Below the pieces are notes generated by a model, which worked only from the letters and a program-made list of their open reading frames with translations, was not told the DNA's origin and did no database searches. The translations under genes were made by a program, and so were the position numbers. Positions 4,033-48,181 of a DNA stretch of 64,000 nt are shown here, piece after piece. Within the stretch, counting starts at the first letter, position 1, and each line of letters opens with the position of its first letter. The DNA comes from Eledone cirrhosa. Lineage: Eukaryota. Location: the NCBI GenBank assembly GCA_964016885.1, contig OZ024745.1:83576001-83640000 (forward strand), in the 5' to 3' direction.

Positions 4033-4390
4033 TAATAATAATAATAATAATAATAATTGTTTCTACATTTAGTAAAAAGCCACCAAATACCCAGTGCATT
4101 ACTGGTACTTTATTTAATAATAAATAATCATTATTATTATTATAATTATATATATATATATATATATATACAATTATATATCTTTAAGTCGTTTGGAAGC
4201 CTCGACAATGCAAATGGGTAAATCTCCGGGTAACAAGGTCAGGTGGTGGAGAGAGAGATGTAAGTGGGTGTACGTTGAGATGCGTGGTGTGTATAAGATG
4301 TGTGAGATGTGTAGAATCAAGGGAAGAGTGTAAAGGATAACATTAAAATAACAACACAAGAGAGAGTTACCTTGGGAGAGATTTAATAGT

Positions 4391-4426
4391 CCCTATATAT
4401 TTCGGATTCACATCCATCAACTGGGG
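4391..4426 (-). ncRNA. Candidate minimal type I hammerhead ribozyme with variant core, left pLTR
   Basis: Minus strand reads CCC-CAGTTGA-T-GGAT gtga ATCC-GAAA-TATA-TA-GGG. Confidence 0.5.
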
Positions 4427-4832
4427 TTTTTCCGGGGTGGGGGAAAAGGTTGTCTGTCGGACAAGTCCGGAACGCGTCCTTCGCTGTTTGTTGTTTTGAA
4501 TATCTGAGGTATTCGGCAGGGCGCGCGTGCGCGTGAAATGGGGTCGGTCGTACAGAGGTCAGCGGCCGAATGAGGGAGTGGGATGGCGCTAGCTGTCAGT
4601 CCATTCTCTGCCTGTTTGTTAAATGTTACTGTGTGTGTGTGTGCGTGTGTTGTTGTCTCGCTTGAGTGTGTGTGTGTGTGTGTGTGCGTGTGTTGTTGCC
4701 TTGTTCCTCTGTATTGGCAGTGTAGTATGTTCGTATGGTGGAATGCTACTGTGTGTGTGTGCGTCTGTGTGTGTAGTTGTTTCGTTTGCGTGTGTGTGTG
4801 TGTGTGCGTGTGTTGTTGCATCGCTTGTTAAC

Positions 4833-7442
4833 TTAAACTAGCCATCTCATTTCGCTTCTCTCTGATCGGTTGTTTATTTGCGGTTGCAGTCGTTTGATAA
4901 AAAGCGCTTCCCTGATACGTAACGTGCCGACGTTTCTTTCAGTCGCTAGAATTGTGACAATGGGCCTTCCGTTTTTGTTTCCGCATTTGTCTATGTGTTT
5001 CCGGAAAGACGAGGCCCTGGTTTTAATGTGTTCCTTGATCCGGATGTGCAAAGGTCGAATTGTGCTACCTATGTAGTATTGGTTGCACCTGTCACATTCT
5101 ATCTTATACACGACGTATGTGCGTAGGCAACAGTTCGCATGGCGTATCGGGCAGTCTCTGAGGGAGCATGCGTCAGTAGATCTTTCGGGTTTCCTGGAGA
5201 GGCATCTTCGCAGGGAGGGGCTCGAGTGGGCCAGGTGGATGTCGAGGCCCTCCCTCCGTATAACCTTGCGGATAGCGTTGGTGGTTTTCTCGCCCAGGTG
5301 TGGCATTTTAAGGAAGTACTTGCCTTGGGTGCTTCTCTGTCTCTTACGTCTGGTGTCTCCTATTCTGTCTGTGATCGAGGTAGGGTACCCGTTCGTCGCC
5401 AGCACCTCGAGGAATCGCTTGGTATGAGTGACACCACTCGCGGGATCGCTGCATCTGTTATTGATTTGCGCGATCTCGTTCGTGATGTATCCTCTTTTGG
5501 CACTGTTAGGGAGGGCGGTCTTGTAGTGAACGAATAGGTCCCTGCAGGCTGCCTTTCGGTAGAAGTTGCAGTGGATCCTTCCCTGTTCCGTGATGTTGAT
5601 TCGGAAGTCGAGGAGGGCAAGTGACCCGTCTTCGTTGGGGTGTTCAACACTGAAGTCAATGTTCTCGTCCGTGTTGTTCAACGTCTCATAGATTCTGTTC
5701 GCCGTGTCTTGGGAAGATGTGAGGATGAGGATATCATCCACGTACCTTGAGAAAAAGGCTACGGCGTTGGGGTGGCAGGCGTTGAGTGCCTTGCGTTCGA
5801 GGTTGTCCATGAAAGAGACCGCTAGCACACCTTATAGGCTTGATCCCATGGGCAATCCCGAGGTTTGTTGGTATATTTGGTCAAGGAATCCGAAGTAGGT
5901 GTTGTCGACGACGATGGATAGGAGTTGGTTGATGTCAGTGGTGGTGAGCCCGAAGCAGTGTAGGTCGGTGGATTGGACGCGTTCCATTAGTATATTGACG
6001 GCCGGGAATGCCGGGACCGAGGTGTAGAGAGCGACTACATCAAGGCTGAAGGCATATCTGTTATTCCTTCTGGTGTCGGGATCCATTTGATGCAGGCGCT
6101 TCAACACCTCCTCGGAGCTGTTAACGTGTCCCGGCAAGGTGTCTAAGATGGGTTTGAGTATTCTGGCTAGGAGCCATGAAATTTTGTAGAGTGGTCCCTC
6201 CACGCTCGATACGATGGGCCTGATTTTCAGGTCGGGTCCCTGTTTGTGTGTTTTCACGAGGTGGTAGAAGGCGGGTATTCTGCTGTTCCTCGTGAGGAGG
6301 TTGTATCTCAGCTTCTTCGGGAGCTTCCGCCGGTCGCAGATGTTGGTCCAGGCGGAGTTGATGTGTTCTTCTATCTGCGCGGGAGTGATTCCCGTGACCT
6401 TGGAGTTGAGGTTGTCATCGTCAAGGTGTTGGAGGGCCAGGGTGTTGTAGGCCTCTCTGCTGATGACGCAGAATTATTTTCCCTTGTCGGAGGGGAGATA
6501 GATGTGGTTCTTCGATTTTAGGTTGGAGAGAGTGGTGAGTTGAGATTTGGTGAGGTTATGTATTGTGCGTGTGTGTGTTTGTGAAGTATATCCGAGATGG
6601 AGCGTCTTAGCCTGATGAGTTTAGTGTCGAGTTCGTGGTTGGGGGGTGGGGGGTGGGGGTTGTCGGGGTGGTAAGTGGGGAACTTGGGGTGGGTTGCGTC
6701 GGCGCTGTTATTTTCTGTGGCGCTGTTGATGGCGGTCGCCCATTTAAGTTGGTAAGCGGCTCGGCAAAAGTTGGCCTCGATGTTGAGTTTGAGTCTGTCG
6801 TCGAGACGTTGTGTGACGATGAACTTAGGTCCGAGGTGTAGGAGTTTCAGCTCGTTGCTCGTGACAGTGCCGGTTAGGTCGGTGACCAAGTGCGTCGCAT
6901 CGTTGAGGTATGGCTCGGTTTGGTGGTTGTGGCGGTGGCGGTTGTTAAGTTGTTGTTTTCCACGTGGTTCTGGTCCGTCTGTTCGTTAGTGTCGATGTTC
7001 TCGTTGTGGCGTTTCGACAAGATCCACTCATATTTTCGCTTGAGCCGATTTTTCTCGTATTGGACTCTGGAGTGGTAGCACTGGTCGATTGCTTTAGTGA
7101 TTTTCAGGAGCAAGTCTCCGGGTGCTATTGGCAGTCGATGTGTCCGCTCTGAGAGTGTCTGCTTATGGACGTGTAATTGGCGGTTGAGATGTCTCAGGAT
7201 CTGTTTAATACACGTGCGATGTATGCGGTTAGTGGTGTTTTGGAAGGCTGGTGTACGTAGACTTACTGGTAAGCGGATGTTCTTGATGGTGTTGGGGATG
7301 ACATCGTTTTTTAGGCAGCGTTTCAGGAAAATAATTTGGCAGCCAGCGTTGGCCCATTTTTCCGACAGTCTAAACAGTTCCCTTACGGATGCAAACAATT
7401 CCTGGCTCAGGTGTAAGGATAAGAGAGTATTGAAGTTTGCTT
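4833..7442 (-). pseudogene. PLE polyprotein with frameshifts and a TAA at 5832-5834
   Basis: Motifs KTHK..IRPIVS, SLDVVALYTSVP, QTSGLPMGS, RYVDD, LLDF and VVYKIECDRCNQYYIGST..RIKEH..REALFI..N. Confidence 0.9.
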
Positions 7443-8033
7443 AAAACCAGGGCCTCGTCTTTCCGGAAACACATAGACAAATGCGGAAACAAAGACGGAA
7501 GGCCCATTGTCACAATTCTAGCGACTGAAAGAAACGTCGGCACGTTAGTATCAAGGAAACGCTTTTTATCAAACGACTGCAACCGCAAATAAACAACCGA
7601 TCAGAGAGAAGCGAAATGAGATGGCTAGTTTAAGTTAACAAGCGATGCAACAACACACGCACACACACACACGCAAACGAGACAACTACACACACACACA
7701 CACGCACACACACAGTAGCATTCCACCATACGAACATACTACACTGCCAATACAGAGGAACAAGGCAACAACACACGCACACACACACACACTCAAGCGA
7801 GACAACAACACACGCACACACACACACACAGTAACATTTAACAAACAGGCAGAGAATGGACTGTGAGCTAGCGCCATCCCACTCCCTCATTCGGCCGCTG
7901 ACCTCTGTACGACCGACCCCATTTCACGCGCACGCGCACCCTGCCGAATACCTCAGATATTCAAAACAACAAACAGCGAAGGACGCGTTCCGGACTTGTC
8001 CGACAGACAACCTTTTCCCCCACCCCTGAAAAA

Positions 8034-8069
8034 CCCCAGTTGATGGATGTGAATCCGAAATATATAGGG
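8034..8069 (+). ncRNA. Candidate minimal hammerhead ribozyme with variant core, right pLTR
   Basis: Same motif as 4391..4426. Confidence 0.5.
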
Positions 8070-8327
8070 ACTATTAAATCTCTCCCAAGGTAACTCTCTC
8101 TTGTGTTGTTATTTTAATGTTATCCTTTATACTCTTCCCTTCATTCTACACATCTCACACATCTTATACACACCACGCATCTCAACGTACACCCACTTAC
8201 ATCTCTCTCTCCACCACCGGACCTTGTTACCCGGAGATTTACCCATTTGCATTGTCGAGGCTTCCAAACGACTTAAAGATATTTACTTATTGTTCCACAA
8301 TGCTTCAAGCAAACTTCAATACTCTCT

Positions 8328-10070: not shown

Positions 10071-11256
10071 ATATATCTCCAATATTGTTTATTGTGTGTG
10101 GACACGTGTGTGTGTGTGTGCATGTGTTTGTGTGCATGTGTGTGTGTGCGTATGTGTGCAAGTATGCGTGTATGTGCGTTATAAGTTGTCATTGTTTTGT
10201 CTTACTGGTTTTGGTAGAGTGGAAAGAGACTGGATTACTATTCAACAACAAGAACGGACATCTAAATTAAATGAACATATAAATTAACGTTACACCGCTG
10301 ATGCGAGCTTTATAAGAGATTTAACTAATTATTTATGTGATAGAGACACGTACACACACAAAGATATATATAAGTATAAATACTGTTTGACTTAAGTGGC
10401 ACTAGCAAACTTTGACAATTGTAATGCGTTCATCAATAATAATGATTTCTTTATTCAATATATATATATATAAAGAAAGACAGAAAGAAAGGAAGAAAAG
10501 AAGAAAGAAAAAGTAAACTTATCCAAGCATCTCATTTCTTCTTTGATGAAGCTGAGCAAAGAAGCGGAAAAGGTGGATGGTTCGGAGAAGAGCGATATAA
10601 AATATAGAGACTTGGGAGATGAAGATATGGATGAGAAGATAAAGATGATAGAAAAAAGGGAAGATATTAAGTAGTGTTTAGAGAGCAAAATGGGGTGGAA
10701 GGGAACGGGATGTTTTGAGAGAGTGGAAAGACTGAGTGAGACTTATCGAAACAAAGTTTAGTGATCTATCTGACTTGGAGAAGTGTTTGGAGATGGTCAG
10801 TTTAATAGGAGTACCACAGAATCTGGACTGTGTAATTGTTGGCTTGGAATAATGCCGAGTCTGTACTGAACTGGTTTAGAAAGCTCTACTCTAAATATAT
10901 TTCAAACTTACTTCTATTTGATATATCTATATTCCATTAGAAGCTGTGAACTTCATTTGAACCATCTCTCAAATCAATGGCAATGATACTGATATAGTTA
11001 TACATACTAGGCTGTCTTTAATCCGATATAACAACTATGCATGATTGTTGGAACCTTCAGCTACACCGTTCAAATTCGGCATGCAAGGCAATGGTGCAGT
11101 GGAGGTAAATCTATCTCGTTTAACTGTTTTATTACACAATCCAAAATCCAGCGTGCTGTTTGTAAAAGGTGGTCTATACAGCGATGACCGTCTTCTAATC
11201 CTCAGAAACAATACTCTCGCTCAACAAATGTACTCAGAATGGATCTTCGTTATTTG

Positions 11257-11748: not shown

Positions 11749-11882
11749 TTTATTAAGGGCAGAACGCATGTGGTTTATATCACACAGATGATGAGTTTGA
11801 GATGTTTAAAACATAGATTATGTATTAAACATCTCAAACTCATCTGTGTGATATAAACCACATGCGTTCTGCCCTTAATAAA
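11749..11882. repeat. Near-perfect inverted repeat of about 130 bp
   Basis: Arms TTTATTAAGGGCAGAACGCATGTGG... and ...CCACATGCGTTCTGCCCTTAATAAA. Confidence 0.92.
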
Positions 11883-23046: not shown

Positions 23047-23919
23047 ATAGGAACGAGTAGGAACCTGACGGCTGAGCTCAAGCCGTTTCGACGGCTAATT
23101 CTGGACTAAATGAAAATGTTTATCCTGGTATATGAATAGCTGAGTTTCTCAGGGGGTAATTCCATATATGGTCACAAGGATTGGTCAAAAGTTTGTTGTT
23201 GAGACACATAATTCTATCATGGCAATTTGTGGGAGGAAGGGGTAGCTGAACCTGCCAGTAAAAGAAAGAGGGAGAGGGGGTGGAGGAAACCCAGTCGTGC
23301 GTTGATAGTGCCAACTACAGCAGGGCAGGAGGTCAAGGAAGTATACTAGGGAGGGGGAGGGGGCGGAAGTCGAAACAATAAGTAAAACACTATGGGGTAA
23401 ATATATAGAAAAATACCGAGAATGTTAAAAAAACAATTAAATATAAAAAAAAAACAATTTCTGGTTACTATTTCCTAAGGACAGCTATCAAGTCTCTCAC
23501 TGGTACTGCTAGACTAAAGAAAAGTTTACTAGGTGGGACGGAATTATAATGAGACCCTATTAAGAGGTAGTAGTAATCACCCGAGTATATCTTACGGTGA
23601 CGGGTCAACAAGTGTGGGGGGGGGGGGGGCAAAATACTAAAGAAACTACCACGAAATAATAATTCTGAGTCCCGAGACTAATACGAAATAATTGTTTCTA
23701 CCCTAGGCACAAGGCCAGCAACCACCCAGTGCAAAAAATAAACTAATACGAAATAATAATTCAGAATCCCGAAAAAGAATACTAATACTATCTCTAAGGG
23801 TGCGGCTACGATACAAAAATTCTAGTGCAAAGTACATAAATGCTCGTACGAAGTATATGAAAAATTTGATACGTTATGGTGAGTTATGGTCCACCTGGTT
23901 CCTTACCACATTTCCTTCG

Positions 23920-23921
<2 letters not shown>
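23047..23921. mobile_element. Interrupted member of the short palindromic PLE-like family
   Basis: Left arm 23047..23106 and tail 23873..23921 match 45344..45532. Both flanks are (TA)n. Confidence 0.6.
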
Positions 23922-39355: not shown

Positions 39356-39404
<49 letters not shown>

Positions 39405-39645
39405 AAATGTGGAGAGGAAGCACACGAGTTAGGATATATTTATATATATATATGAAAACAGGGAGAAAGAGACGATTATGAGGAACAAACATTTTTTTTT
39501 TTCCTTTTTTGTTTCTCTCTTTATTCTGGGTTAGAAAATGATTAAAACGAAATGTTTTACTTTGTGTGAAGTGTTAAGGTATTAGTTGATTTATGTATTA
39601 TTTAACAATGGCATTTATTTATCTATTTATATATTTAATTATTGT

Positions 39646-39687
39646 CTATTACCGGTTTCGGCATTTAAATGCATTATCAAATGATAG
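39646..39687 (-). ncRNA. Candidate minimal hammerhead with U3-A8 core
   Basis: TTGATAA-T-GCATT ta AATGC-C-GAAA-CCGG-TA-ATAG. Confidence 0.55.
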
Positions 39688-42387
39688 TGAAATGTATTAG
39701 TGTGGTGTCGCACATGTTAAACAGAAGATGCAGAAAGAATAATGTTATTTACAAGCAAGGTTTAAGAAGTGAAAAGAAAAAAGGAAAAGGAAAAAAAACG
39801 TGCATAATGTGGAACGTAAAAAGTCAATGTGGAAGAAAAAAATAATGTTATTTACAAGCACAGTCATTGAAGTTAAGCAGATCAAAATGTATTAAAATAG
39901 CAAGAGTGCTTAGTTGAACCATGGTTCCGTGATGGAGGCAAATGGTGGACTGAGGTTTGATATGATTTCCCTTTTTAGAGAGTTAATATGCAGGGGAAGC
40001 AATTCTTGGTGGGTGATATTTAATTTATTTAAGAAAAAGGATTAGATAGGGTGTGAGGGAGGTAACACTTGTAAATGTTTGATAGTTTGTTGCAGTTTTA
40101 GATTGGTCCGATTTTTAGAGCATTGAGTAGTGGTTGAAATTTATTAATGAAATGTTTCATTGGTACGTTGGATGAAAGTAGCGTTGTCTATGAATTTTAA
40201 ATGGGAAAAGTTTTTAAGTTTGGATGTTGGTTGAGAGCACAATTGGCGATATGTTCACTAAATGCAATCTTTCTGTATTCCTGTATTTTAATTTGTGATT
40301 TATGGTCGGTCATACGTTGACGGAGGCTGTTTTTTATCTGTCCTATGTAGTGCTCTTGACAACATGAGCAGGTCAAAACATAGATAAGGTTTTCAGATGC
40401 ACATGTAAAGTTGTGTTTAACTGTGAAACGTTGTCCTTGTTTAAAATGGAATGTTGAACATTCTATTAGATTTATGCATATGTCACAGTTGAGCCTTCCG
40501 CATTTTGTTACTGTAGGGTTTATTGTGAGGGTTTGTGGGATTTTGGCTTGTGTGAGGATGTTTTTTTATGGATTTGGGTTGTCTTTTGCTCTTTATAATG
40601 TTGTGTGTTTGGAGGATATTGTTCATTCTTGGGTCTCTTTTTAGTAAAGGAATGTTCTGGAGGATGGTGTCGAATGCCTCATTGTTGAGGGGTTGTGTGT
40701 GGAGATGTATGGTAGAGTTTTTGTGGCGGTTCATTCCTGGGTTTGGGGTGTCTGAGTTCCTGGATGTCTAGTTTTAGGGCACGTTGGAATCCATTGGTGA
40801 TTAGGGATGTTGGGTAGTTTCTGCTGATAAGTGTGTTTTTTAATTCTTCTAGTCGTGTGTAGCATGTGTATTTATCTAAAACTATTGTTCAGATCCTTCT
40901 GGCTAGGTTATAAGGAATTGCCATTTTGGTGTGTCTAGGGTGGCACGAGTTGAATGGAAGGTATTGTTTGGAGTCCGTGGGTTTGTAGCATATGTCTGTT
41001 TCTATTTTGTTGCTTGTTTTCTTGATGTGGATGTCGAGGAAAGGGAGTTGTTCATGGCTGTAATCCATTGTGAATTGTAAGTTAGTGTTGAGTCCATTCA
41101 GAAGGGTTTTGAACTCAAACAGTCTATCTATACTTTCATGCCACAGGATGAAGCAGTCGTCCAGATATCTCTTCCAGTTCTTTTCTATGTGTTGGTAGAA
41201 GTGGTTGCCGTATTTGTCTAGAACTTTGCGGTAGAGAATGGTTTCCAAATATCCCATGACAAGGTTGGCGTATGAGGGGGCCACTTTCGTTCCCATGGCA
41301 GTCCCAGATTTCTGTCTGTAGTATTTGGCATTGAATTCTAAGAAATTGTTTTCCAAGATGAATTTGAGTCCCTCCAACACAAATTCTTTAGGGATGCTCT
41401 GTGGAAGTTCACTAGGGAAATTTTCCATCCAGAATTGTATTGCCTCTATACATAGGCTGTGTGGGATATTGAAATATAAATTGATGACATCAAAAGTGAC
41501 TAGTAGGGTATGTTCGTTATTGAGTGTTTTGGGGAGGTGGTTGAGCATGTCAAGGTCGTCCCTTATGAAGCTTTTTATATGTTTTAGGAACGGTTTAAGC
41601 AGAATATCTAGGAAGTTGCTTAGGCGGTGGGTTTCACATGTGGTGCCTGTTATTATGGGTCTTAATTTAAGGTCATCAGGAGGGGCTATATTGATGTAAA
41701 CGCCTGTGGCATATGCATAAATCTAATAGAAGGTTCAACATTCATTTTAAACAATGACAACGTTTCACAGTTAAACACAACTTTACATGTGCATCTGAAA
41801 ACCTTATCTATGTTTTGACCTGCTCAGGTTGTCAAGAGCACTACAAACAGCCACCGTCCATAAATCACAAATTAAAATACAGGAATACAGAAAGATTGCA
41901 TTTAGTGAACATATCGCCAATTGTGCTCTCAACCAACATCCAAACTTTAAAATGTTCCCTATTTACAAATTCATAGACAACGCTACTTTCATCCAACGTA
42001 CCAATAAGGAAACACATTTCATTAATAAATTTCAACCACTACTCAATGCTCTATAAATCGGACCAATCTAAAACTGCAACAAACCATCAAACATTTACAA
42101 GAGTTACCTCCCTCACACACTACCTAATCCTTTTTCTTAAATAAATGAAATATCACCCACCAAGAATTGCTTCTCCTTATTAACACATTTTGATCTTCTT
42201 AACTTCAATGACTGTGCTTGTAAATAACATTATTTTTTCTTCCACATTGACTTTTTACGTTCCACATTATGCACGTTATTTTTTCCTTTTTCTTTTTTCT
42301 TTTCACTTCTTAAACCTTGTTTGTAAATAACATTATTCTTTCTGCATCTTCTGTTTAACATGTGCGACACCACACTAATACATTTCA

Positions 42388-42429
42388 CTATCATTTGATA
42401 ATGCATATAAATGCTGAAACCGGTAATAG
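42388..42429 (+). ncRNA. Second copy of the U3-A8 hammerhead candidate, two substitutions
   Basis: TTGATAATGCATATAAATGCTGAAACCGGTAATAG. Confidence 0.5.
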
Positions 42430-42619
42430 ACAATAATTAAATATATAAATAGATGAATAAATGCCATTGTTAAATAATAAATGAATCAACTAATACCTTA
42501 ACACTTCACACAAAGTAAAACATTTCGTTTTAATTTCATTTTCTAACTCAGAAAAAAGAGAGAAACAAAAAAGGAAAAAGATATATTTTTCTTCCGCATA
42601 ATCGTCTCTTTCTCCCTGT

Positions 42620-42663
<44 letters not shown>

Positions 42664-42671
42664 ATATATAT

Positions 42672-42823
42672 AGGAAAATGTTTAACCCCGACGGCAGAGC
42701 TCAAGCCGTTTCGACGGCTATTTCTGGACGTTAAACATTTTCCTGTTACCCACTCTGCTTCCCTAAGTATTGAGTACTCTTGTGCGTTATGGTCCATCTG
42801 GTTCCTTACCACACTTCCTTCGT
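42672..42823 (+). mobile_element. Short palindromic PLE-like insertion with most of the right arm deleted
   Basis: AGGAAAATGTTTAAC...GTTAAACATTTTCCT plus the shared tail. Confidence 0.7.
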
Positions 42824-42833
42824 TATATATATA

Positions 42834-44217
42834 CTAGCGGTCCCGTCCGGCTGGCGCCGGCTAGGGATACCGACATGTTATCCTTTTAGGAATCCCCCTA
42901 CACTCCACTGAAAAGATACCGCACGCCCTCTGAAGTCAGCGAGTGGGGAGGGTTAACGTACTCTGATGTTGGGTTTGAATAGTTTTTAGATTCCCCAGTT
43001 CAGTTGCAAGTACGTTAAAGAAAATTGATAGTTACAACAATAAAGGTTGAACAGAGAACACATTTTTTAACAAACAATAATTTGTACAACCATAATGGAA
43101 ATTCCAAGTAACAGAAAATATTTAAATTACATTGTTAGAACCTCAGAGTATACAATATCCTTTGTTCGGTCCTCCGGAGCAAAGATGAAGAGATGGTTTG
43201 GCGAGGTCACACTAAAGCATCCTACATAAAATTGACTATGGGAGAATCACTCATTTCGTAGCTCGTCTCGCGGAGAAGCTCTGTAGACGTTAACCTCAGG
43301 ACACTCCTGTCAGGAGTAAGTTGTAGTGACTTAGTAAGCTGTAGGGACTTAGAGGCCCACCACCAATCTCCAGGACACTGTTTTCAAGACAAATGAGCGC
43401 CTCATTGAAAACGACATCGTATGTTACGTTTGGATTGTGTCTGCGTGTGCGGTGGAGGATGTCCTCAGCTAGATTTTCACGGTGGTTGTTCCACAGTGCG
43501 AGAGGGTCGGCGAGATCGCAGTTGTGCAGCATAATAGCAAAAGGTTTTCGCAGCTGAGAAGGGACTTTAGCAGTTGCTGCTTCTTGCAGAGTGAGGTGCC
43601 AATGGCTGTTATCGTGTAACATACCACGCATCTGGCAAGCCAAACGGTAAGTGGCACATTGGTTGCCATTGATGGTTCTCAGATCTTGGAAAGGTTGTGG
43701 TCCTCTAATCTCGAACAGTAACAATGACGATAAGCCGTCTGTGCTTTCGTGAAATAAATAGTTTTTTTGTTTTTGTGTATGCAAAAATATATGTACACGA
43801 ATATATATATATTAAAATAACAGATTAAAGTTTAAGCCAAGAATCGATGCTTTCACCCTTAACGGGAGCTTCTGAAACTAAAACAATCCGTCTGTGAACG
43901 CAGAAGTAAATATTTCGAAAAACGTTGTCTGATGCAGACAGCCAGACATACAAAGACATATTATAAGAAAGAGAGTGGAATGTTGTGCGACGTCATAAGA
44001 AAAAGTGAGGAATGACGTATAACTGGAAGTGTTGACATTTGAAATTTTAAAGAAGTGAATATTTAAATAATGTCTTTAATCTTTTAACAAATTCAGTAGA
44101 CAAAAATGCCCTCACTTTTTTACTTGGATAAAGTTACATCTATGGTGCAAATTTCGTGCTGTTTGGCGGAAAGTGTGTTACCTACATACGGCCATACCGA
44201 CAGCTTTATATTATAGA
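42834..44217 (-). mobile_element. Internally deleted Helitron with both termini
   Basis: 5' end A|TCTATAATATAAAG. 3' hairpin CCGGC-gcca-GCCGG followed by CTAG|T. RepHel peptides RGPQPFQDLRTING..TYRLAC..G.L.D..W..TL.EA and FSHSQFYVGC..TKDIVYSEVL*. Confidence 0.9.
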
Positions 44218-44228
44218 TATATATATAT

Positions 44229-44420
44229 CGGATAGAGTAAAAACGAGGTGAACCTTAACTTACCAGAGTACTCGATACTTGGAGTAGTACAGTGGGTAAT
44301 ATGAAAAGATTCAGGACCCCGACGGCTGAGCTCCGGCCGTTTCCACAGCTCTATCCGAACGTTCGGATCTAGCTGTCGACATGGCTGGAGCTCAGCCGTC
44401 GGGGTCCTGAATATTTTCAT
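44229..44420 (-). mobile_element. Short palindromic PLE-like insertion, second subfamily
   Basis: Palindrome at 44301..44420 plus a tail homologous to 45455..45532. Both flanks are (TA)n. Confidence 0.75.
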
Positions 44421-44441
44421 TTATATATATATACAGAGCGA

Positions 44442-44585
44442 GAGTGGAGGAGATGTAATATCCCGACCGCAGTGCCAGACGTTTTCGTGTTGTGCGTTCA
44501 GCAAACCATTTTCAAGGATGTTAAACACATAAGCCGAAACCACTTGACACTGCGGTCGGGATTTTACATATCTCTATATCCACTC
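44442..44585. repeat. Imperfect inverted repeat with a hammerhead-like GAAAC...GGTC half
   Basis: GTAATATCCCGACCGCAGTG and CACTGCGGTCGGGATTTTAC. Confidence 0.7.
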
Positions 44586-44657
44586 ATTGAGTACTTCCAT
44601 GACTAGTGATTTCCTCGGTCCCAGCACCACAGATTCTCTCCCCCTCTCTCTCTCTCT

Positions 44658-44714
<57 letters not shown>

Positions 44715-44889
44715 GTTCCCTCTCTCCGTCTCCCTCTCTCTTTCTTTCTCAATCTAAAACTTCACTGGACAGCGCTTTGGCATGTGTCAGAAGCTGTGAC
44801 CCCGGGTGGAACAGAAGTAGCGCTGGTAGAGGTCGAAATGCCAAAGTCCATCTCATCATCCGATGACCTCTCTTTCCCTGTCGTGCTTT

Positions 44890-44972
<83 letters not shown>

Positions 44973-45343
44973 TATGTTTACGTACATACATATATGTATA
45001 CAGACGTACAGTAGTATGTATATATACATACATGCACACATATATATATGTACGTATGGATTCACCAAACATTTATTATAATGCTCGGTGTGTTTGTAAA
45101 CAAACATCCTGTGTTAAGCCGCAGTGTCTAGCAACCACCGTTGCTCGTTTGTTCAACACTGACAAAGGAACACTGTACTAGTTTCAAGCTTGTTTGCTAT
45201 CGTCAGCAACGTATACCTTCCTGCGAGATTGTTGAACGTCCGAAAGTATATACTTTCCCTATGCACATTAACGGCTGAGCAGCCCAATTTGCATATCGAG
45301 TGGGTTAATCGGCCGGGTGCACCGATTATATATATATATATAT

Positions 45344-45530
45344 ATAGGAACGAGTAGGACCCCGACGGCTGAGCTCAAGCCGTTTCGACGGCTAGTCCAG
45401 AACTAGCCATCGAAACGGCTTCAGCTCAGGCTTCGGGGTCCTAGTCGTTCCTATTACCCACTCTACTACCCTAAGTATTGAGTACTTTGGTGCGTTATGG
45501 TCCACCTGGTTCCTTACCACATTTCCTTCG

Positions 45531-45532
<2 letters not shown>
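45344..45532 (+). mobile_element. Short palindromic PLE-like insertion, most complete copy
   Basis: Palindrome of about 110 bp at 45344..45454 plus a tail of about 80 bp, between (TA)n runs. Confidence 0.8.
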
Positions 45533-46285: not shown

Positions 46286-46702
46286 TTTACTAAATAAGCT
46301 CTCTTGCAATAGATTTAGCACTGTTTTGGTTGACAAATTATCTACGGGTATCCTGTATACGTACACCCATCCACCACAAATACACGCATACACACACACA
46401 CATATATATACACATATATATATGTATATATATATAGCTGTCGAAACAGCCGGAGCTCAACCGTCGCGGGCCTGACTCTTCTATATATATATATATATAT
46501 ACAAATATATATATGAAAATGTTGAAATTATTGAAACGAATCAGTCACTACAATGACAATAGCGTATACAAATCGGGCAAAATACACCTATGGACAGAAA
46601 CTAAGTGGCCAGTAGCCACTATATTCCAATGTTTCTTTCCGTCTTAACTACCGTGAAATGAACCAAAGTCAGATATAACAAATACATGTGCGTGATTCTG
46701 CA

Positions 46703-48032: not shown

Positions 48033-48181
48033 TGAAAGAGTGAAGAATATCATGGTTGGCTGTACAAAAAGGGTTTCATTTACAGTATTAACAATTGTTT
48101 CATTAATCAAATGAAATAATTGTTAATACTGTAAATAAAACCCTTTTTGTACAGTCAACCATGATATTCTTCACACTTTCA
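48033..48181. repeat. Hairpin of about 150 bp next to a (TA)n(TG)n tract
   Basis: TGAAAGAGTGAAGAATATCATGGTTG... and ...CAACCATGATATTCTTCACACTTTCA. Confidence 0.9.

Follow-up and report, generated by a model that had tools for sequence, protein, structure and literature searches.

Among described Penelope-like elements (PLEs), the Hydra clade of C-terminal EN+ PLEs is closest to the family considered here. According to the available part of its description (Craig et al., 2021, PMC8557442), the reverse transcriptase (RT) plus GIY-YIG frame, a motif set defined in its section 11, the (TA)n target and a hammerhead in the terminal repeat are all features that recur at our locus; a Hydra family is listed for Octopus bimaculoides, and a canonical hammerhead core is held by the authors to be usual for the clade, not defining. 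A typical EN+ PLE insertion, as far as the accessible portions of PMC3846280 and PMC8557442 go, consists of an inverted 5′-truncated pLTR, a one-sided tail and partial tandems. In the published accounts as available, the inverted ends are explained by self-priming or EN resolution, not by joint run-off. For Poseidon of Anolis, the available part of an in vitro study (Frangieh et al., 2024, PMC11167929) reports that the PLE protein nicks and extends both strands, that two internal RNA start sites bound the tail and that the product length follows the RNA 5′ end; that part describes neither a palindromic joining of the products nor an in vivo trace of hammerhead cleavage, and reports no reads ending at the cut site of its element. 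In the Schistosoma Cercyon PLEs (Cervera & de la Pena, 2014, PMC4209133, available part), the hammerhead is characterized by U3-A8 covariation, a G10.1-C11.1 pair and a palindromic loop III. The building of the inverted ends, the RNA strand that is copied and in vivo cutting by the hammerhead are stated to be open in the accessible portions of PMC3846280, PMC8557442 and PMC11167929.

The window, by which we mean the whole 64-kb stretch of DNA analysed, contains five pieces of one family, at 23047, 42670, 44229, 45344 and 46432, with (TA)n at each (Table 1). Positions with a minus sign are relative to T0, the last arm base (the A of the TA at which the tail begins), and T1 lies 80 nt downstream of T0. 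A first-pass annotation had described five related palindromic copies; all five are real and lie at (TA)n, but the palindrome-plus-tail form is confined to two of them (45345 and 44229), and the copy placed at 46437 is a solo arm. The segments 45345-45453 and 44301-44420 are palindromes, each with a tail of 72-78 bp. In copy B, the join is blunt, with both arms stopping at -58, and in copy C, the inverted arm (~60 bp) is longer than the sense arm (~16 bp). The motif of stem III plus GUC that had been quoted is present on the minus strand of copy A, in its left arm (45345), and several private changes distinguish the arm on the tail side. The tail of copy A is the 5′ leader of the unit, the start codon of which follows 171 nt after T0. 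An Rfam scan of the window returned 93 weak matches, with no hammerhead among them and none at the gathering score.

Table 1. Coordinates in the window of the five related pieces and their parts.
Feature	Position	Strand	Description
Copy A, inverted arm	45345..45394	-	Putative cDNA primed at T0, end at -49 (stem II 3′ strand); minus-strand reading: GAAA, stem III, GUC, stem I 3′ strand
Copy A, junction	45393..45394	.	TA microhomology, 2 nt; 45394 = A at -59, the predicted RNA start
Copy A, sense arm	45393..45453	+	From initiator-like site to T0; hammerhead 3′ half, several private substitutions
Copy A, tail	45454..45531	+	First 78 nt of next tandem unit, up to predicted priming site T1 in (TA)n
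Copy B, older subfamily	44229..44422	-	Tail 44229-44300, palindrome 44301-44420, axis 44360|44361
Copy C	42670..42823	+	Inverted arm to -58 (end 42729); sense arm trimmed to ~-15 (start 42730); full tail
Copy D	23047..23920	+	Inverted arm of ~820 bp to at least -727 of parent 3′ UTR, plus last 44 bp of tail
Putative hammerhead in copy D	23060..23157	-	Whole but degenerate; core 23146-23152, C3-A8 mismatch; stem I and 10.1 changes
Copy E	46437..46482	+	Solo B-subfamily arm between (TA)n tracts; no partner arm, no tail

The source of these short inserts of ~190 bases (stubs) is an RT element, as the first-pass annotation had proposed in ascribing them to PLEs: a unit of 3,531 bp with RT plus GIY-YIG carries both the arm and the tail. 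The link was provided by the sampled tile L074, in which a 5′-truncated copy of 2.87 kb is bounded by the stub arm and tail and encloses an RT plus GIY-YIG frame; the relatives of this copy are 98-100% identical in 40/40 scored copies (2,881 candidates). In a tandem array, three 3,531-bp units differ by at most one base and hold a frame of 717 codons with YRDD and YIG motifs (identified by eye), that is, an RT with a C-terminal GIY-YIG. The frame has the motifs DKT, RWR (for RWK), a CxCX5C linker, CxxC and CxH, the last two flanking a conserved E and N, and no CCHH; 2,036 homologues were found at E≤1e-30, and a Pfam scan of two truncated pieces of L074 returned no family. The stub tail is the beginning of the next tandem unit, and every stub base maps to the PLE unit. 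T0 and T1, the two fixed termini of the stubs, both lie on an internal TA of the unit and are followed in the genome by (TA)n, with a flank of exactly (TA)4 at T0 in 69/96 and a TA-type flank after T1 in 73/96 parsed stubs. B-type arms (the subfamily of 44229) also occur in long copies, and protein pieces were found at 4/20 such loci. Tandem or partial tandem units, an inverted 5′ copy and a one-sided tail are all present, as in EN+ PLEs. An array at L186+L187 (contig C1, 437.198-437.214 Mb), in which the 3,531-bp unit is repeated more than four times in near-identical form, with an intact frame and an inverted 5′ arm, is likely a source locus. In one RNA run (a small share, as assembled contigs), one piece of the 3′ UTR was covered.

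On the basis of the motifs, the (TA)n target and collinearity judged by eye, we assign the parent of the stubs to the Hydra clade as a young member. Its protein is visibly collinear with that of Hydra-1_Obim in the supplement of PMC8557442 as available, in which two 10-nt motifs of the parent family have no match. The unit is 3.5 kb long here, in contrast to less than 3 kb in the clade as described in the accessible part of PMC8557442; the canonical motif is listed there for Hydra-1_oBim, whereas the family here has a U3-A8 core and a loop II of ~37 nt, and it is further distinguished by tandem arrays and by stubs on the order of 10^4-10^5. Moreover, the tail measures 78-80 nt compared with 30-40 nt in a typical EN+ PLE (published sources as available), and the minimum without a frame dominates here. 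The three features of the Cercyon hammerhead are shared, with the differences, relative to the available part of PMC4209133, that four further stem III pairs are present here and that loop II holds the predicted start.

Judged by its sequence, the parent has a type I hammerhead that is complete and is built around a U3-A8 core, in agreement with the earlier proposal that the arms are hammerhead-derived: the whole motif is located upstream of and in the arm, with stem I, a UUGANAA core and stem II with a loop of ~37 nt on the upstream side. Of the A-type arms, 6,338 contain the core plus stem II, as do 97 of the B type. Across 46 distinct whole motifs, the stems are conserved, position 7 is free, stem II covaries across subfamilies (G-C in 30, A-U in 16), and the core is U3-A8 in 42/46 and C3-A8 in 4/46, which is not the canonical core of the Hydra clade; all stem features of type I, with UC, are present in 27/46. 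The parent ribozyme folds into a three-way form with a stability no better than that of shuffles (z -0.38), and this form is the minimum-energy fold in only 18/46 motifs. A parent PLE with CTGANGA upstream of the arm had been anticipated; the search returned 27 hits, none of which shares stem I or II; their flanks are unrelated or consist of junction fillers. The related statement that the CUGANGA half is missing holds insofar as the 5′ core and the stem II 5′ strand are absent from the stubs, but the parental core reads UUGANAA, and copy D retains the 5′ half. The subfamily of copy A often has the C3-A8 mismatch. A C3-A8 core also occurs in about a fifth of the listed core-plus-stem-II matches, a sub-lineage with a broken 3-8 pair that is still amplified, which suggests that cleavage is dispensable.

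The genome searched comprises 3.0 Gb. An exact 23-mer of the arm has 32,616 matches, compared with none for the reversed control, and two oriented palindrome-plus-tail patterns have 9,414 and 6,025 matches (lower bounds, with a few percent counted on both strands), i.e., at least 15,439 genome-wide. In 40 tiles of 10 kb chosen by position, 21 hits represent ~19 inserts; therefore, there is about one insert per 20 kb, older subfamilies included. For structure, 96 stubs chosen by position rather than similarity were parsed from 58 regions with 23-mer matches, 60 regions with palindrome-plus-tail patterns, the 40 tiles and the window; locus L098, a duplicate of L074, was left out, and the long arm of L140 was dropped as well. 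Most of the sampled copies lie on contig C1 and were selected by an exact motif, so that the sample is biased towards young copies. Occasional inserts are matched by the tail pattern in both orientations (3/100 and 1/100 of the listed matches of the two patterns), which suggests rare T1/T1 pairs.

The 96 stubs have 87 distinct centres, with at most three alike, which bears out the earlier suggestion that copies formed de novo. The junctions are private and consist of overlaps of 0-2 nt or of A/T-rich fillers. The central hairpin had been read as the parental stem II, a reading that does not hold; the hairpin is a chimera created at the junction. Its left half mirrors the 3′ strand of stem II; in the parent, the genuine 5′ strand is found 38 nt farther upstream. 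Likewise, the axes had been placed at stem II, but they coincide either with an initiator-like site, 5′ of the 3′ strand of stem II, or with the cut site. A parvovirus-type flip/flop or rolling hairpin was considered for the central flip and rejected, the centres being private and mapped to the parent. Since loop II is quasi-palindromic, arm lengths were compared after a strict split, by which 26 stubs have a longer inverted arm, 51 have a longer sense arm and 19 have arms of equal length. The inverted arm, which lacks a tail, also exceeds the sense arm in 7/13 long truncated copies and in copies C and D.

The stops of the two arms of an insert are coupled, and arm ends are concentrated at two edges, the first of which is -59. 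In the 96 stubs, 175/192 arms end at or before -62, 90 of these at -58 to -62, and the ribozyme core is at -102. The base at -59 is the A of a conserved, initiator-like TYAGT inside hammerhead loop II; TTAGTY or TCAGTY is found at -61 in 41/46 parents, although loop II otherwise diverges between subfamilies. Both arms of the full-length copy L119 end at the same edge. Beyond -59, the junctions contain A/T runs, and the non-parental base that follows -59 (antisense strand) is C in 3,282 cases versus T in 419, with G at -60 in 0/26 distinct parents. By hand count, the extra C, which corresponds to a cap-like G in the sense strand, is unexplainable by the other arm in 43/100 listed C matches, and for 57/100 a plain join is an alternative reading. 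Reverse transcription of the cap has been reported to leave such an extra base (PMC4038843, available part), and a TATA-less internal promoter with an initiator is described for the Penelope of D. virilis in the accessible portion of PMC2377424. These features point to a capped transcription start at -59, inside loop II. An RNA starting at -59 would not contain the UUGANAA half, which would explain why this half is absent from the stubs. Two other candidates were set aside: a TATA box at -88 is present in some A subfamilies and absent from B parents and is not claimed, and a start at -63 (TCATTT) is not conserved across subfamilies, so that -59 is preferred.

The second edge is -18. The pattern used for very short palindromes has 648 matches, and in 38/100 of those listed (hand count) both arms stop at -18/-19, the base after GUC; 26 of the 38 have a non-parental filler and 12 are blunt or ambiguous by one base, and most other listed matches join at stem III repeats. 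The cut-site examples that were fetched, picked from that class, are whole T0/T1 inserts in 20/20 cases, 13 with strictly perfect termini. We infer that the stop at -18 corresponds to a 5′ end left by hammerhead cleavage after GUC in vivo. The C3-A8 subfamily accounts for 8/38 cut-site inserts versus 27/68 (p=0.056), a difference that is suggestive only. In a longer-than-unit copy (L111:650-700), the sense part starts at the predicted cut (-18/-19) and the inverted arm extends to ~-24.

The stubs are head-to-head PLE inserts, and we consider it likely that each was formed at its own site by the joint run-off of two cDNAs on one RNA. Reverse transcription would be primed by both nicked strands of the (TA)n target, at T0 and T1 of a single RNA. 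Such a use of both strands and of two start sites bounding the tail accords with the in vitro behaviour of the Poseidon protein (PMC11167929, available part). The two cDNAs would run off the RNA 5′ end, which would be either the cap (-59) or the ribozyme cut (-18), and would then be trimmed, tailed and end-joined. Long copies would be T0/T1 pairs with more element upstream, from tandem read-through or circular RNA. Terminating at T1, the stubs probably represent dead ends. In L1 twin priming, two target strands also prime on one RNA and leave an inversion without duplication; here, in contrast, both cDNAs would cover the same 5′ segment, which results in a palindrome. Two observations are not accounted for by the run-off model, namely, the twofold excess of stubs with a longer sense arm over those with a longer inverted arm and the combination of one T0 with one T1 in nearly all inserts.

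The use of a single RNA is consistent with the concordance of the two arms, which agree in subfamily in 68/70 inserts and have 19 symmetric variants versus 0.16 expected by chance, although such concordance could also result from subfamilies active at different times or from inter-arm conversion. It is unlikely, in our opinion, that each strand was instead primed on its own RNA molecule, in an RNP dimer with two RNAs. The PLE protein is a predicted dimer (PMC11167929, available part), the arms differ at a diagnostic site in 2/70 inserts, and mixed inserts, in which the inverted arm ends at -58 and the sense arm at -18, do exist (83 found, ~20 of them exact); however, about 850 would be expected in the searched orientation if the arms chose their templates independently (a rough estimate, as the searched patterns differ in stringency), against at most 83. 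Furthermore, in long truncated copies with both inner ends visible, a long arm is never paired with a start-site arm, i.e., one ending at -43 to -65 (0/22, 9 + 13).

Long palindromes are unstable, and the stubs might thus be long inverted-repeat copies from which the middle was later deleted, with the hot spots arising from local microhomology. About half of the very short class does join at stem III internal repeats, but we regard this origin as improbable for the stubs, given that both arms have sharp edges, at -59 and at -18, that the former recurs in full-length L119, and that the extra base, the A runs and the fillers are non-parental. A slightly poorer prospect still is a non-autonomous unit (MITE, SINE or retrozyme-like) that spread in ready-made palindromic form. 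In its favour, the 40 top-ranking BLAST hits look alike, but their uniformity is a ranking bias, and position-ordered samples give the 87 centres; in addition, no terminal inverted repeats occur at both ends. The first-pass view that the inserts only resemble MITEs is upheld, since the tail is at one end, the centres are private and the partner is an RT element; the target site duplication is unreadable inside (TA)n. A non-LTR retrozyme consists of tandem monomers, each with a whole hammerhead (10.64898/2026.07.22.740005, available part), and the stubs are head-to-head and lack the hammerhead 5′ half.

The mechanism originally proposed, namely, that a cDNA primed at the tail snaps back at stem II and then primes its own mirror arm, is very improbable. 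In its favour, the axes are clustered immediately 5′ of the 3′ strand of stem II, the longer sense arms fit it, the quasi-palindromic loop sequence would explain a common 30-nt centre and self-priming has been proposed for PLE palindromes (PMC3846280, available part). However, a cDNA folding back cannot copy sequence it never held, and snap-back therefore fails as a general route, the inverted arm being the longer one in 26/96 stubs, 7/13 long copies and copies C and D; moreover, the extra C and A fillers lie on both arms and the cut-site-centred class is entirely without stem II.

The insert architecture and the clade have already been published, and the joint run-off mechanism is new to the literature searched. 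Neither joint run-off palindromes in PLEs nor genomic traces of PLE hammerhead cleavage were found described in that literature, which covered few subscription journals. Taking joint run-off as the preferred reading, we lean towards regarding the stubs as a fossil 5′-end library of germ-line PLE RNA. One sense RNA would be copied from both target strands; a start inside the hammerhead would disarm the 5′ copy and leave the downstream copies whole; the U3-A8 hammerhead would cut in vivo and yield dead-end inserts; and the inverted pLTR of all EN+ PLEs would be a second run-off cDNA. The family is young and has an intact frame, and its thousands of junctions allow predictions to the exact base: a cap at -59, a cut at -18 and two priming sites 80 nt apart on one RNA. 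Such stubs are liable to be filed as MITEs or SINEs, and searches restricted to CUGANGA miss the U3-A8 ribozyme.

Several other elements occur in the window. A different PLE occupies 39400-42620 on the minus strand, with RT at 41722-40889 (Pfam RVT_1) and GIY-YIG at 40565-40197; it has a long inverted 5′ arm, a short tail and (TA)n at both ends, as in the stub family. Near 39650 this PLE also has a minimal hammerhead-like motif, the core of which is U3-A8. A third PLE-like copy at 4172-8288 has broken RT and GIY-YIG frames (minus strand) between inverted arms of ~750 bp, and a weak match to the parent RT (26-29%) at 10845-11254 is an old, distant PLE fragment. Copy B adjoins an unrelated element of ~150 bp (44434-44590) with inverted arms of ~35 bp and a GAAAC motif inside. 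Near-perfect palindromes of 110-130 bp at 11750-11880 and 48050-48165 are unrelated to the stub family. Directly after copy C, from 42833 onward, there is a palindromic GC-rich start that is Helitron-like, and the frame at 43296-43811 resembles a Helitron helicase region.
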